Assembly: GCA_964016885.1 (NCBI GenBank)
Contig: OZ024740.1
Span: 390,228,001 to 390,292,000 of the forward strand
Origin: Eledone cirrhosa
Taxonomy: Eukaryota
Length of the DNA: 64,000 nt
Reading direction: 5' to 3'
The number at the start of each line of letters is the position of its first letter. Positions within the stretch are counted from its first letter, which is position 1. Of the stretch, positions 4,893 through 56,270 are shown piece after piece. A model generated the notes under the pieces. It had not been told where the DNA came from, made no database searches, and worked only from the letters and a program-made list of their open reading frames with translations. The position numbers and the translations under genes are program-made.

Positions 4893-5133
4893 TATATATA
4901 TATATTATATATATATATATATATAATATATATATAATAAATATATATCATATATATATATATATATATATATATATATATATATATATATATATATATA
5001 TATATATATATATATATATATATAGTAATAATAATAAAATTGAAGACTAAAATCCAGAGAGGGCTCGATAAGGAAAATATATATCAAATATATAAGAACC
5101 GAAGAGCAAATATTTATTAAAATAACAGATTAA

Positions 5134-5184
5134 AGTTTAAGCAAAGAATCGCTGCTTTCACCCTTAACGGGATCTTCTGAAACT
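5134..5184 (-). ncRNA. Hammerhead ribozyme (CAGAAGA core variant), PLE 1 3' arm
   Basis: AGTTT-CAGAAGA-TCCCGTTAAGGGT-GAAA-GCA...TGC-TT-AAACT: all three stems form, U4 is replaced by A, CUU triplet. Confidence 0.65.
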
Positions 5185-5273
5185 AACAAAGTCAATCTGT
5201 AAACGCAGAACTGGATATTTCAAAAAACGTTGCAACCGGAGGAAGACAGGAAGACGATACTTTGGTTCATGGT

Positions 5274-5536
5274 GACGTTCGCTGGCAAAGAACGGGAAAA
5301 AACGAATAATACGTCATTAATAGGAGCGGTGAAAAACAATTACGTGCAAGGACAGAACCACGTTTATGGTATAAAAGAGGTCGTAGACTAATGTTCTCTA
5401 AGTGGTGCATAGAGACGTTCTCTGGCAATGAACGAAAAAACGAAGATAATAAGTCATATGTGGAGCGTGGAGAACAATAGCGTGCAAAGACAAAACCACG
5501 TAAATGGTATAGCAGAAGTCGTAGACTAAAATTCTA
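5274..5536. repeat. Diverged ~140-bp tandem duplication in the PLE 1 3' UTR (mirrored at ~8852-9114)
   Basis: GACGTTC.CTGGCAA.GAACG...CGTGCAA.GACA.AACCACGT..ATGGTATA...GTCGTAGACTAA occurs twice. Confidence 0.75.
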
Positions 5537-6109
5537 ACTAGGAGACCGAATGAATCTCCGCTACAGAGTTAAGAACAGAGTAAATAAATACAATACAGAA
5601 GTAGTAGGAACAAATAAATACATACACGCAAACAGATACGTACATACACAAGCATACGCAAAACCTTACCATAGGTATACAAAACCACGCACATATAAAT
5701 ATGTGTATGTGTGTATGCTTGTGTACAAATAAATAAATAATTATATAAACGTATATAAGTAAATAAAACGTATATTACAAGCGCACACACATACCTACAA
5801 ATAAATACATGAAGGTTCGGAGACGTAAGTCAACTAAAACAAGAAGTACACATATACACACACCCACCATACGTACGAACCTGCATACTCACGCAGACGC
5901 AAAACTCCCATATACACATAACCAAGCCCTAAATACCAGAATATGTAAAAATTATACGCCAAAACAGTCAAATATACGTACGAGAAGGTATACATACCTT
6001 CACAAAACATACGGGTAATATATACTTACCTATGCAAATAAGCAAAGGAATAAACAAAACATATACTTAGCTCCCACATCAAGACGTAAATATCCACGTA
6101 TAGATCGTG

Positions 6110-51409: not shown

Positions 51410-53953
51410 ATGCTAACTAAAGACTACCTACCTATATCACTCAAGAACATCCCAACCCCATCCAGTACTACTTATGAGAAATTACTGATAGCTAGTGTCA
51501 ACTCCTTCGTTAAGCGTATTAGATGGCGCACTTTCTTTCCACTTCGATAAGAGAAATAAGAAATCAACCACGGTGTCCCCCAATAATAAATTCGGTTTTA
51601 AAACCTATAGGAGCCCGCCCCATAACTCCATGCTAGATGGATTTGAGAATGACCTCCTATCACTAGTAAGGAATATTAAGTTTAAAAAAGCCCATGGGAA
51701 TAGCAACAAATTCCGGATTAAACTGGAAACCTTAGTTAAGGGCTTTAACAATAAAAGAGATATCCTGGTCACCTCGGATAAAACCAGAAATATTTATAGC
51801 TTAAATTATGATACGTATCGCAGGTTTATATACAATGAATTAAATAGAAACTATAAAAAGACAACAAGCGCAAACCTAGATGAAATTAATAAGGAAGCAT
51901 GCGCCATAGTGGATAAACTAGGCCTGGAAAAGTATACCCAACCATATACCCCTAGGCAACCTAGGTTCACCCTTAAAGACCATAAGGCTGACTTCATTAG
52001 TAAACCCTCTGTTAGATTAATTAGCCCATCGAAGTCAGATATAGGGATTATCAGTAAGAAAATTTTAGACGGCGTTATACCTACCATCAGGAGGAAAATA
52101 AATCTAGAGCTATGGGAGAATACGGAAGAGGTTTTGAAATGGTTCTCAAGCCTTAGCAACCATAAATCCCTTAAATTTATACAATTCGACATCGATGCGT
52201 ACTACACCCCAATCTCCCCCATAATCCTTAATAAGGCCCTAATCATGGCCATGCAGAAAAGTGACCTCACCAGGTCTCAAATTGATGTCATTCTTGCGGC
52301 CTGGAAAACGATAATCACATTTGAGGACGAATTGTGGACCCGCAAGAATACGCCCAATAACTTCGACATCACAATGGGATCTAGTGACTCTACACAAGTA
52401 ACGGACCTGGTAGGATTGTACCTCTTAAAGGAGTTACATGAGACATTACCGCACTTGAAGGGCGGCTTATATCGTGATGACGCCCTCCTCACTCTCGAGT
52501 ATAAAAAGTGCAATATAGAAAGAACTAGGAAACAGTTACGTAGGTTCTTTAAAAGCTTTAATCTAAGTATTACTATAGATGCAAATGACAAAACAGTAAA
52601 CTTCCTAGACGCCACCTTTGACCTAGAAACTAAAACATTTGCACCCTACCATAAACCTAATGATAGACTAACATATGTAAACGCCAGCTCCAACCACCCC
52701 AAATCAGTCCTAAACGCTATTCCCAGGGGGTCTCTAATAGAATTAGCAGACTGTCCTGTAATGAGAGTATCTTCAACTCCAATGCAGAGTATTATGACAA
52801 GGCCCTAGCAGAATCTGATTACGGGAATAGATTATCATATATACATAAGGACTCCCAAACCATGAGTGTGAAACCTACCAACATAATCACACATAGTATG
52901 GCCACAAAGCCTAACCAACTTAGGGGCAAGAATAATAGTAAGAACCCTAATGGCGGTAACCCAGCTAAATGTAAACCACGTAGAGACAATACTAGAGTCC
53001 CTCACCACAACTCTAAAACAGCAAATGATCACGCCATGAATATAAACTATCCGGGCTTAAGCAAAACAGACAACGCCACTAACGTTAATAACGGAACCCT
53101 ACAAAATAGTACGCACAGTAACGAGACTCACCCCACAGATAAGAAAAATAGAAGAAGGAAAAACATGTATTTTAACCCACCTTTTAACTCTGAGGTCCTC
53201 ACTAACCTCCCCAGAGTATTCTTCTCATTATTAGAAAAAAACTTCCCACCAGGCAATAGATATCGCAACATAATTAACAAAAACGTGATTAAATTATCCC
53301 ATTCGACCACACCTAACCTCGCATCACACCTAGCACGCACGAACATTAGGAAAACTAGGGAAGGTTTCGAAGCAATTAAAATGGCAGTTAACCACCAGCA
53401 ACAGACTACACTGGAAAATGGGCAACATAATAGCATCACTGAGCCATCTAATGATATAGAGGCACCTAGTGATAATGCTAGTAACCAAAGTTCGGGAGGT
53501 ACGCTAACTGATCGAACCCGCAGTTGCAATTGTAGGCGGAGTAGTAATTGTCCCCTAAGGGGGGATTGCCTCATGAAAAACATCGTATATGTATGTGACG
53601 TAACCACACACAACTCTACCAAAACATATATAGGATCAACGTCCAATACATTTAAAACTAGATTTAACGCGCATATGTACACATTTAGACACGATAGACA
53701 TAAGAATGCCACCTCACTGGCGGGATACATCTCCTTTTTAAAAAATAATAGTACCCCATACAAACTTTTTTGGAGGAAGCTTACTAGATCCACGCCATAC
53801 CGACGGCAGAGCGGGAGTTGTGACCTGTGTTTACTGGAATGCCATGCCATAATACACTCTAAACTGAACCTGCTTAACAGGAAATCGGAAATGTACTCCT
53901 CTTGCCAACACAAAATCCTGAGTTCCTTCTTCTATTTTAAACCTAGCACATAG
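51410..53953 (+). pseudogene. Full-length Naiad RT-GIY-YIG ORF (~847 aa) with two compensating 1-nt frameshifts
   Basis: ATG 51410 gives MLTKDYLPISLKNIPTPS...FVKRIRWRTFF. +1 shift at ~51535-51541. RT (SDKTRNIY, FTLKDHK, FIQFDI, GGLYRDDA, NFLDATF). -1 shift in the G5 run at 52726-52730. Then SNRISRLS..., YFNPPF, CNCRRSSNCPLRGDC, NIVY...TYIG, CDLC. Confidence 0.9.
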
Positions 53954-56061
53954 ACGTAACATATATGACGCAACCCCCACCTAGACATACCCCTCCTTGA
54001 CTATAGCTTCCCCCACCAACCCATAACCCAGATAGATAGGTAGCCTAAGGGTGGAACAGTCCCCTACAAGGTTGGTGTTTGTGTGTGTGTGTGTATGTGT
54101 GTGTGTGTGTGTGTGTCTGTGTGTGTGTGTATTCTCCTTTTCTCTCACACACACACACACACACAAACATATGTATATATGTGTGCGTACGTGTGTGCAT
54201 GCATGCATGCATGTGTGCGTGTATTGTATACATGTATATTGTATATATATATATGTATATTGTATACATGTGTATTATATTGTGTGTATGTGTATATGTG
54301 ATATGTATGTGTATATATATATGTATGTGTATATGTGTATGTGTGTGTGTATGATATGTATATATGTGTGTATGTATGTATATATTTTCTGTAGAAGTCT
54401 TCTCTATATGTGGTGTTTGGCATGAATTCCTCCTATAATACTCTTCTTTGAGAGGAGCACGATATGTAGAGTAACACATAGGTATTGTCGCAGTTGAAAC
54501 TGAGAACCACCACCCCTCCTGCTGACCCAAATGTTTACTGAGGACCAGAAAACCATTCTTCACAATATAAGAGAGGAATGCGCTTGCCGGACTATTGATG
54601 ACCATAACATCACATTTCAAGGTAATGGTAAAATACAGTGAATGCTAAACACGACCAGAACACCACAACATGCACATCGGAGCAACAGAGATATAATATC
54701 AATAAGCGAATCAATTGAATTTTTTGAGTTGAAATACATATAAATATGTGTCTGTGTGTATCGGACACACGTACACATAAAGAAACTGCTGACCTAAATG
54801 CACCTGTCATGCCTGTCTGAATTCCTAAGAGAATTTTCGGTCAGTTACTATCTTGACCGATTACCCTCACAATTACTACGTAGCGGTTCTTGCACGTGAC
54901 TGCTGGACCCGGATGAAACGAAGACGAAGAATTTCCTTGCGTACCGTTTTATACCACAGATGCGATCTCACTCTGCCTCGTTAATGTTCAATCGACCCCA
55001 AAGTTCTACGTTCGGGGCAATAGAATTGAATCCAACCACCGACAACATAGTTGGATGACCGATAATCACACCAAACCGGAGTACTGTGATCCTTGTGATT
55101 TCGAGATATACAACCACTGACACTGTTACGAAGACCAGAAAACCATACTCCATATATTGAACCAAGTGATTGATTTGTGCGACCAAAATAACACCACACA
55201 CATATTGAACTAGGAATATTGGATCCTCCGTCAATGTCAGGGTGAGCAAAAATAGATTTCTATCTGCATTGGAATTTACGAACTTGTGCATCTGCTGTGG
55301 TGTCAAAAACAAACGCACATGACCGCACAGATGAACAATGGACTATGCCACGTGGGCTGAACCTGCAAGTGAATTGAAGGATGTGTAACTCTGATATACA
55401 GATTATTTATTATTAAGATGTATAAACTTGACATAACTATTATCATCTTATATTCTCTCAACTAATCACATTTGATTATATTTCTCTATCCCGTTTTCTC
55501 CCCCCATATTTATAATATTTTTATTTGAAAAAATCGGTTTTTTTACATTGTGTTTTTCCCTTTCTAATACTTGCTTATATTTCTTTATATATTCTCTATA
55601 TATTTTTATATATATATATTTTTTTATCTTTATTCTTATTTTCACTTTTATCCTCCTTTATATTTTACCTTATTCTTACTATTATACCTTATTATAGTGT
55701 AATCTTCCCCATGCCTTATTATACATTATTAATTATAGATTATTATTATTACTCTTTTTCCATTTCTAATTACCTCATGTACTTTCTCCTCCGTTATATA
55801 TATATTGTATGCCCTTTGTGTGTGTGTAGCCTCCGCACACCCTCTGCACCCTACTATCGACGCCACCCCATCTATGGCTCAACTAACCACTCGACTCCCG
55901 GGAATGAATATGACCACAGCTAGTAAACAAGGACCCACACCCCACCCTCCCGCACCAAAATTAGACTTATCGTCCCCTGCTTTTGCTCTTTACTCTCTTT
56001 ACTCTTTGTTCTTGAATGTTTGGTTGGTAGAGTCCATAACACCAACCAAACCCCTTTTATA

Positions 56062-56106
56062 GCTCTGACGAATCCTACGGTTACGTAAGGAAGAAACATT
56101 GTAAGC
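56062..56106 (+). ncRNA. Hammerhead ribozyme, PLE 2 3' arm
   Basis: GCT-CTGACGA-ATCCTACGGTTACGTAAGGAA-GAAA-CATTG-TA-AGC: canonical core, GUA triplet, very short stem III. Confidence 0.78.
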
Positions 56107-56270
56107 CAATAAAAATCTTTTGATGTTGTAGACGCTCTTGTGTTCTTTATCATATATACGGCTCTGCTCCAAAGTATAGAGCTAATTATTATGCTGCCAA
56201 TACCTTAATGGGACACGGGTATACAATACCTAACTCCTATTAACCTAAGTATATATATATATACATATAT

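Follow-up and report, generated by a model that had tools for sequence, protein, structure and literature searches.

Three families of Penelope-like retroelements (PLEs), assigned to the Hydra clade by motif reading, lie inserted in (TA)n microsatellites, and their head-to-head shape is probably due to priming of reverse transcription by both 3' ends of the cut target, at two fixed start sites on the element RNA. The window, by which we mean the whole 64,000-nt stretch of DNA analysed, contains three such insertions (5025-9278, 46776-49248 and 49549-56249), one from each of families A, B and C. The arms of insertion A (5110-6561 and 7827-9278) are 1452 nt long and were listed as 100% identical, the divergence comparison giving 3 mismatches; those of insertion B (46885-47010 and 49123-49248) measure 126 nt and those of insertion C (49549-51396 and 54312-56158) 1848 nt, both at 99% identity. 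An earlier reading made from the letters alone (hereafter the sequence-only reading) had noticed that one arm always runs further out to the (TA)n, and direct reading confirms this extension, of 85 nt (5025-5109), 109 nt (46776-46884) and 91 nt (56159-56249). The ends it gave for the shorter arms at (TA)n, ...AAATAT, ...CCTTTA and ...CATATATA, all read as claimed, but CCTTTA belongs to an atypical copy of family B. The short arm of that copy stops 23 nt before the usual short end of its family, the sole such case among 38 short-type ends, and the 109-nt difference is thus a quirk of the window copy, the family norm being 86 nt, with the short end reading ...CTTATATTAT. Below, S and L denote the short and the long 3' end, and the features of the window are as follows.

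4890-5024, unstranded: (TA)n microsatellite beside the long end of insertion A, read directly
5025-5109, minus strand: 85-nt tail of family A, confined to the long (L) arm; from direct reading and inverted-repeat comparison, common to 40/40 scored genome matches
5025-7826, minus strand: family A long-end arm, 5'-truncated, spanning 458-3259 of the unit and carrying an incomplete RT-EN ORF (6110-7826)
5134-5184, minus strand: hammerhead-like motif of family A, with CAGAAGA (U4 to A) ... GAAA as its core; hand fold, script-checked, Rfam negative
7827-9278, plus strand: family A short-end (S) arm, 1452 nt, ending ...AAATAT at (TA)n
9279-9307, unstranded: (TA)n beside the short end of insertion A
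46776-46861, minus strand: family B tail at its normal length of 86 nt; the short arm of this copy also lacks the adjoining 23 nt (46862-46884)
46776-49122, minus strand: family B long-end arm, 5'-truncated, with an RT-EN ORF remnant
46897-46969, minus strand: putative hammerhead motif of family B, CUGAUGA ... GAAA, whose helix III is the palindrome AUGC/GCAU; hand fold, script-checked, Rfam negative
49123-49248, plus strand: family B short-type arm, 126 nt, with an atypical end 23 nt early
49249-49548, unstranded: (TA)n/(TATG)n microsatellite on which insertions B and C both border with their short ends
49549-51396, minus strand: family C short-end arm, 1848 nt
51397-56249, plus strand: family C long-end arm, starting 67 nt inside the unit 5' end, with the RT-EN frame split (51492-52808 and 52667-53953)
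56055-56115, plus strand: putative hammerhead motif of family C, CUGACGA ... GAAAC AUU GUA; hand fold, script-checked, Rfam negative
56159-56249, plus strand: family C tail, 91 nt, on the long arm only
56250-56270, unstranded: (TA)n beside the long end of insertion C

The Hydra clade has been described as possessing a C-terminal GIY-YIG endonuclease, a CxCX5C linker, DKT in place of DKG, and CxxC and CxH motifs around the endonuclease E and N residues (PMC8557442). The ORFs of families A (709-713 aa) and B (818 aa) show YRDD followed by IVY/LIY...YIG/YFG, as expected of a reverse transcriptase (RT) with a C-terminal GIY-YIG domain, and family C has the same content spread over two frames. The linkers read CNCRNRADC, CNCRIKNKC and CNCRRSSNC in the three families, all of which also carry the DKT motif (HSDKT/SDKT), and family A contains CDLC...CKH, corresponding to the CxxC and CxH motifs. 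No internal CCHH was seen in the ORFs when judged by eye; Pfam gave weak GIY-YIG matches (E 0.0026, below cut-off) and no RT family match to the ORFs. Since these motifs agree with the published description, and since TA repeats flank almost every S and L end in the genome copies, the three families are assigned to the Hydra clade.

Putative hammerhead motifs lie close to the short ends of all three families. In families B and C, CUGAUGA/CUGACGA...GAAA cores are flanked by helices I-III that pair correctly in script-checked hand folds, and helix III of family B is a loop-less palindrome, while the core of family A reads CAGAAGA, with U4 replaced by A. Rfam returned no hammerhead match in the window, in the insertions or in 111-nt slices around the B and C motifs, either at gathering score or with E up to 10. 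The predicted cleavage sites lie upstream of the short end, by 29 nt in family A, by 46 nt in family B (counted from its usual short end) and by 55 nt in family C, where the cut would fall after 56103. The inner 5' arm ends of family A cluster at unit positions 3131-3146, near the predicted cleavage at 3145/3146; as they mostly lie 5-8 nt upstream of it, ribozyme-defined 5' ends are not claimed.

The positions of the 3' ends were mapped in genome copies found with probes that excluded the extra tail bases, the copies sampled being the best-scoring and youngest ones and not a random census. Family A ends fall 27 times at S, 30 times at L and never elsewhere (n=57), family C ends 29 times at S, 16 times at L and never elsewhere (n=45), and family B ends divide into 38 S-type, including the one that is 23 nt early, and 31 L (n=69). 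This clustering at two positions, spaced 85, 86 and 91 nt apart in families A, B and C, is far above chance. Moreover, the extra 85-91 nt are element sequence and not flank, as all 40 scored genome matches align with 5025-5400 over the full length or from base 2 at 99-100% identity, and the short end stands at a constant offset, adjoining a TA-rich patch, as had been proposed.

Both ends meet the target in a regular manner. At genomic junctions the S ends read ...ATAT, ...TATTAT and ...ATATATA in the three families, giving 4-8 nt of TA microhomology, and the TA alternation is carried on into the flank at 23/25 family A ends. The flanks of non-tandem L ends start in register with the opening bases of the following unit ('TAT' in 24/25 family A, 'A' in 28/28 family B and 'TAT' in 12/12 family C ends), and 9/28 family B and 3/12 family C L ends bear 4-5 nt of next-unit sequence. 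The long end is therefore not necessarily the RNA terminus that the sequence-only reading took it to be, its junctions likewise keeping a constant TA phase, in agreement with the start of the following tandem unit. With 2-8 nt of TA microhomology at both start sites, the genomic junctions suggest that annealing to the TA target occurs at each of them.

The two kinds of end are combined according to a nearly invariant rule. Among 64 two-armed insertions, 58 pair one short with one long end (S/L) by script and two more by eye. The rule holds in 26/27 pairs of family A, 12/13 of the short family B sample, 7/8 of family C and, by script, 13/16 of the long family B sample, in which L202 and L206 proved to be S/L by eye; it also holds in insertions with tandem units. 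No clean S/S pair and no homologous L/L pair was found among the 64, the apparent L/L cases L145 and L148 being tandem arrays with S at the far end. The four pairs that do not fit cleanly are L139 (ends at unit positions 300 and 793), L114 (S/S beside an inverted L fragment), L185 and L205, the one clear S/S, which is an inverted segmental duplication taking in 1.3 kb of flank. At one further locus, L137, a family A long end stands head-to-head with 23 nt of a family B long end.

The longer arm in the 26 S/L pairs of family A is the S arm in 13 and the L arm in 13, and in four of them the L arm consists of tail sequence only. As either arm can be the longer, the arms are independent cDNAs, and neither can have been copied from the other. 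Arm-arm divergence lies below the between-insertion mean in 27/33 comparisons, the family B part of which includes a few mis-paired neighbouring insertions, and this favours a single event; together with the varying arm lengths it supports the earlier proposal that the arms are separate copies joined head-to-head. The within- versus between-insertion comparison replaced a count of arm-shared variants against the window copy, because that count scored the private changes of the reference as shared. Within the window the overlap of the arms reaches 1452 nt in insertion A and 1848 nt in insertion C, and 11 further family A pairs also have overlapping arms, so that the 3' region is duplicated. Inner junctions show 0-8 nt overlaps or gaps; those of family A vary among insertions, from unit position 891 to 3220, and those of family B concentrate at a CATATG palindrome.

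These observations are most simply accommodated as follows. The element endonuclease would nick both strands of the self-complementary target, whereupon one strand would anneal at S, a UA patch 29-55 nt 3' of the hammerhead motif, and the other at L, the unit end. Both cDNAs would then be extended towards the 5' end, on one and the same transcript or on sibling ones, and halt at variable points, after which their 3' ends would be joined through short microhomology. Since the arms overlap, this would call for a second RNA molecule or, on a single one, for strand displacement. If a protein dimer occupied two sites of one RNA, with one protomer for each DNA strand, the one-S-one-L rule would follow.

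The tail itself was compared with the 5' end of its own element. With cheap long gaps, the family A tail aligns with its own 5' UTR at a score equalled in only 3/1000 shuffles, and the tail opens with a copy of a conserved 5' motif that is also present just beyond the long end; it appears to be a degenerate version of the 5' UTR motif. For families B and C, 79/1000 and 74/1000 shuffles score as well, which is not convincing, and at ordinary gap costs the resemblance is weak in all three (41, 703 and 80 of 2000 shuffles as good). The hairpins of tail and 5' end have no unusual thermodynamic stability (z -2.6 to +0.8). In family A, the motif shared by the tail start and the sequence after the long end suggests two equivalent, signal-guided sites.

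A more specific form of two-ended priming can be entertained tentatively, although we consider it doubtful. Insertion would be obligately two-ended and asymmetric, one RNA presenting two paralogous initiation modules to a dimeric RT-endonuclease bound to both, each protomer of which would nick one (TA)n strand and prime at its own module. Such a module might comprise a UA patch followed by a GCUC...GAGC hairpin, occurring once at the tail start and again at the 5' terminus of the tandem unit that follows. If so, every complete event would yield exactly one short and one long arm, and an RNA from a non-tandem copy, having no second module, would lead to one-armed short-end insertions only.

Less probable again is the exact version put forward in the sequence-only reading, in which the RNA truly ends at L, where priming needs no internal signal, and S serves as a secondary start, reached by annealing alone, on another RNA that hammerhead dimerisation keeps in place. 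The 4-8 nt of TA microhomology at the short end agree with it, the loop-less palindromic helix III of family B could pair between molecules, and the heterologous A/B junction of L137 indicates that two RNAs can be used. However, L ends also join TA in next-unit phase, some with next-unit bases attached, and L139 ends 300 nt into the next unit; the tail-start motif of family A speaks for equivalent sites, and the one-armed copies of family C, 24 short-end versus 5 long-end, contradict the notion of a merely secondary short site. Self-priming, whereby one cDNA folds back and copies its own sequence into the inverted arm, has been proposed for Penelope inverted repeats with palindromic junctions and is discussed in PMC3846280, and the small overlaps or gaps at the inner junctions and the CATATG palindrome of family B would suit it. 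A snap-back arm must nevertheless be a subset of its template, whereas here the L arm always has a tail absent from the S arm, the S arm reaches further 5' than the L arm in half of the family A pairs, and the tail-only L arms have no overlap with their S arms; these non-nested arms contradict snap-back as a general mechanism, which we regard as improbable.

The two remaining explanations are very improbable. Tails might have stood on both arms at first, one of them being lost afterwards when the internal TA patch slipped against, or recombined with, the (TA)n of the flank; the TA-rich patch at the short end could indeed recombine with the flank, and the family B arm in the window has an extra 23-nt loss. 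Against such loss, no homologous L/L pair occurs among the 64, even where the arms differ by 0-0.6%, and no clean S/S pair either, the one clear S/S, L205, being an inverted segmental duplication. Chimeric assembly, or the copying whole of one fold-back master, might be suspected because PLE inverted repeats are said in a passage of PMC8557442 to trouble assemblies, and because many short family B pairs have similar inner junctions. This is scarcely credible, as the inner junctions of family A differ for each insertion, private substitutions distinguish the arms, and asymmetric S/L ends occur at dozens of loci on many contigs.

Priming from both cut ends of the target thus remains the preferred reading. 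PLE integration is still largely a puzzle, and the only reconstituted system, reported in 2024, left the one-sided genomic tail unexplained. Three young, high-copy Hydra-clade families offer a clean natural data set, with fixed starts, a near-absolute S/L rule, independent arms and TA microhomology at both sites, by which the one-sided tail becomes a testable question of a dimer acting on two RNA sites. For annotation, the model accounts for the appearance of these elements as long inverted repeats in (TA)n.

In L1 twin priming, both target DNA ends prime cDNA and the two cDNAs are joined head-to-head via microhomology, the inverted piece replacing an upstream segment and the second start being variable. 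The proposal made here is alike in its two-ended priming and head-to-head microhomology joining. It differs in that the arms overlap, both starts are fixed and, as the sequence-only reading stated, the inverted piece duplicates the 3' region rather than replacing an upstream segment.

Among PLEs, the Hydra clade (Craig et al. 2021, PMC8557442) shares GIY-YIG, CxCX5C, DKT, CxxC/CxH, (TA)n insertion and a putative hammerhead core with our families, although family A has A for U4 in that core, and the units of 3.26, 3.68 and 4.92 kb exceed the usual <3 kb owing to long 3' UTRs. An entry in the supplement of the same paper notes an inverted 5'-truncated copy for one Repbase Hydra-clade family. A tail of 30-40 bp at one inverted repeat is described as a PLE hallmark in passages of PMC3846280 and PMC8557442, and a Poseidon-clade protein cleaves and extends both DNA strands in vitro, with two RT start sites bracketing the tail (Frangieh et al. 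2024, PMC11167929). The core claim of two-ended priming hence holds, being the best fit and in agreement with this work, but it is not new in kind, as the tail asymmetry had already been described. Features shared with the PLE tail system are the outer-end extension on only one inverted copy, the two discrete cDNA start sites flanking the tail (read here from genomic ends), the AT-rich target, the tandem (pLTR) copies and the putative hammerhead motif near the start sites. In vitro, top and bottom strands showed no difference as to where cDNA began, and homology between start and target was lacking (PMC11167929); hence neither the strict one-short-one-long rule of the genomic copies nor their 2-8 nt TA microhomology at both starts is predicted by that system. 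The tails also differ in length, 85, 86 and 91 nt here versus 30-40 bp, and the start sites here are situated within the 3' UTR and at the end of the unit, as against 111-118 nt into the ORF in the published system.

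Three head-to-head inverted structures, each with (TA)n at both borders, are present in the window, and their arms are as follows.

Insertion A: 5025-7826 (reverse strand) and 7827-9278 (forward strand); part common to both arms, 5110-6561 and 7827-9278
Insertion B: 46776-49122 (reverse strand) and 49123-49248 (forward strand)
Insertion C: 49549-51396 (reverse strand) and 51397-56249 (forward strand)

The arms encode a reverse transcriptase followed by a C-terminal GIY-YIG endonuclease, for which Pfam gave only sub-threshold matches. Full units of 3259 (A), 3676 (B) and 4920 nt (C) were assembled from tandem copies and used as coordinate systems. 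They contain HSDKT or SDKT, YRDD, IVY...YIG, CxxC and CxH motifs around the E and N residues of the endonuclease, and CxCX5C linkers (CNCRNRADC, CNCRIKNKC and CNCRRSSNC). Craig et al. 2021 (PMC8557442) define the Hydra clade, a group of Penelope-like elements that inserts into (TA)n, by such motifs, and the predicted products of families A, B and C carry these defining features. For families B and C, manual folding gives hammerhead cores whose helices pair correctly, and the hand-folded core of family A is the variant CAGAAGA; Rfam reported no hammerhead in scans of the window, the insertions, or slices around the B and C motifs.

The window holds several other features. Between two (TA)n tracts, at 56265-58340, lies a GC-rich stretch, and a 249-aa open frame (56244-56993) has at its end a distinct GIY-YIG domain (LVYGLRCTECNATYVGQTG), which Pfam scores below its cut-off at E 0.0023; the likely source is a Penelope-like element from another clade, truncated at its 5' end, that shares the microsatellite of the family C long end. 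The (TA)n housing insertion B is directly adjoined by a near-perfect 85-nt hairpin (46502-46677; arms 46502-46586 and 46593-46677, 96%), which in Rfam resembles microRNA precursors at sub-threshold scores only (MIR9563, 68.9 bits; gathering score 90). Just left of the (TA)n of insertion A, a sequence of about 220 nt is directly repeated (4000-4240 and 4660-4880, spacing about 660 nt). Inverted pairs occur at 1020-1109/1523-1612 (98%; a 48-nt unit with TA repeats on both sides), 10072-10193/10553-10674 (98%) and 14121-14480/23725-24073 (89-98%), and at 40001-44000 the GC skew is strongly negative (-0.52 to -0.55) with a raised GC content (0.46-0.49).

In each insertion one arm is longer than the other at its outer end, by 85 (A), 109 (B) and 91 nt (C), as direct reading confirmed. 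These extra bases are element sequence rather than flank, since in the 3.0-Gb genome all 40 scored matches to a tail-including family A probe (5025-5400), drawn from 2474 candidates, include the tail at 99-100% identity, full length or from base 2. To tabulate ends, we used probes interior to the tail, the scoring of which is hence neutral between the short (S) and long (L) end positions, recorded where homology stopped, and dropped duplicate contexts before counting. Candidate matches numbered about 1100-2500 per family for A and C and 181 for the family B arm probe, the sampled copies being the best-scoring and youngest. Ends fall at two positions only in family A (27 S and 30 L, n=57) and family C (29 S and 16 L, n=45). 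In family B, 38 ends are S-type and 31 are L (n=69); 26 of the 38 S-type ends lie at the exact site and the rest, except one, within 4-5 nt. As the sequence-only reading anticipated, S thus stands at a fixed offset from L, namely 85 (A), 86 (B) and 91 nt (C). Its value of 109 nt holds for the window copy of family B and not for the family, because the short arm of that copy, the single outlier, stops 23 nt early. In every copy seen, the 3' UTR of family A (window 5263-5535) also contains a tandemly duplicated segment of about 135 nt (positions 90-222 and 228-362 of the 600-nt reference, about 79% alike).

The two end types are distributed between arms in a strict manner. Regions of 9-10 kb were fetched for 35 copies of family A, 37 of family C and 20 of family B, and BLAST matches to the unit were chained. 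Pairs with one S and one L outer end account for 26 of 27 in family A, 13 of 16 by script among long copies of family B, 12 of 13 among its short copies, and seven of eight in family C, where the remaining pair (L185) is unassigned. Over all families this amounts to 58 of 64 pairs by script and 60 of 64 after inspection, since two long family B copies, one with an internal deletion (L202) and one with a small palindromic match that confused the script (L206), are S-L by eye. Under independent choice of end type about half of the pairs would be homotypic; among the 64 examined there was no clean S-S pair and no homologous L-L pair. The asymmetry of the arms is a real, non-random feature.

The exceptions deserve individual description. 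The family A exception (L139), whose ends lie abnormally at 300 and 793 of the unit, is a tandem copy, also represented by L195, whose 3' end lies 300 nt into the next unit with (AT)n directly after, joined head-to-head to a fragment of unit 518-793; here copying started at an unusual point of a template with several units. The lone S-S case among long family B copies (L205) has flanks that are mutually inverted over 1333 nt at 95.6%, so that it was rejected as an insertion-made pair and assigned to an inverted segmental duplication or assembly palindrome. A short family B copy (L114), S-S beside an inverted 56-nt L fragment, is ambiguous. Two apparent L-L loci (L145 and L148) were rejected, since in each the L arm stands opposite a tandem array that terminates in S on its far side, and further family C 'pairs' called by script were matches to a low-complexity TG/CA stretch inside the element.

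How the two arms arise can be judged from their relative lengths and divergence. In family A pairs the S arm is longer in 13 and the L arm in 13, and in four the L arm consists of tail sequence alone, without overlap to the S arm (for example unit 3217-3259 in L129 and 3174-3259 in L136). Self-priming, in which one arm would be a fold-back copy of the other, is discussed for Penelope by Arkhipova et al. 2013 (PMC3846280) and could produce inverted arms, but the L arm always carries a tail that is missing from the S arm, so that neither can be such a copy, which argues against this model. The two arms of an insertion differ less from each other than, on average, from other insertions in 8 of 11 comparisons for A, 12 of 15 for B and 7 of 7 for C, with three differences over 1449 sites between the family A arms of the window versus an average of 1.2% between insertions. 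This agrees with the single event that the sequence-only reading proposed, and it indicates that both arms were copied simultaneously, from one template or from sibling templates. Removal of a tail after insertion could leave a similar asymmetry but is unlikely, as among the pairs examined even near-identical ones are never L-L. The two arms are independent copies, produced in one event. At L137 (2290-2320) a family A L arm (unit 1667-3259) meets the last 23 nt of family B head-to-head, followed by (AT)n, making a heterologous two-armed insertion with both outer ends L; because it joins L ends of two families, two RNAs can, at least sometimes, serve as template, although in general the template may be either two RNAs or a single one with strand displacement.

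Both end positions bear the mark of the target. At S the element reads ...AAATAT (A), ...CTTATATTAT (B) and ...CATATATA (C), and the flank carries on the TA alternation past S in 23 of 25 family A ends. The AT microhomology first seen at the end of the inverted arm is therefore present at S, but it is not limited to it, L junctions also being TA-phased: the flank starts with TAT in 24 of 25 non-tandem family A ends and 12 of 12 family C ends, and with A in 28 of 28 family B ends. This is the phase of the next unit's first bases in tandem copies (TATTTGG, ATTAAC and TATTTCT), and 4-5 nt of next-unit sequence precede the repeat at 9 of 28 L ends in family B and at 3 of 12 in family C. Given this fixed phase and these next-unit bases, L too behaves as an annealing-guided start. 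The template may run past L, of which the stop of L139 within the next unit is an instance. One-armed copies occur with both end types (six S and six L in A, four and five in B, 24 and five in C), and S is hence itself a primary start and not a subsidiary one.

A possible basis for two such sites is a duplicated signal. The 5' ends of all three units share GCTCC...CGGTTGAGC, and the family A tail aligns with the 45-nt family A 5' UTR, a 30-nt insertion aside, with 3 of 1000 shuffles scoring as well; in families B and C the alignment is weak (79 and 74 of 1000). In each of the three tails a predicted hairpin lies no more than a few bases past S, with unremarkable energy. One lead, well supported only in family A, is that S and L are paralogous, with a copy of the same signal immediately 3' of each. 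Within a family B tandem junction (L209, 6800-6860) the upstream partial copy stops at S, with the ...TTGATCTTATATTA motif duplicated, and continues directly into the unit 5' start, leaving a junction without tail. Inner junctions of family B (L091-L120, L196 and L202) cluster near unit 3421, 255 nt from L and within a CATATG palindrome, and in the short sample about 17 of the 25 arms begin at positions 344-347 of the 600-nt reference; the cluster could mark an RNA 5' end, with transcription starting in the pseudo-LTR, or a hot spot for joining at the palindrome.

The central proposal of the sequence-only reading, two-ended priming from a cut (TA)n, is sound and in outline already in print. 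Purified protein from the Poseidon clade cuts both strands of an AT-rich target and extends them, and reverse transcription begins at two internal sites, the tail being the stretch between them (Frangieh et al. 2024, PMC11167929). The feature described here is a new instance of this known Penelope-like 'tail' and two-ended priming, with family-specific twists. The clade is different, and the tail of families A, B and C is two to three times longer than the published one. TA microhomology is found here at both starts, in contrast to the published start, which is reported to lack homology to the target. Finally, the strict rule of one S and one L per insertion was unpredicted by the in vitro work, in which start-site use was alike on the two strands.
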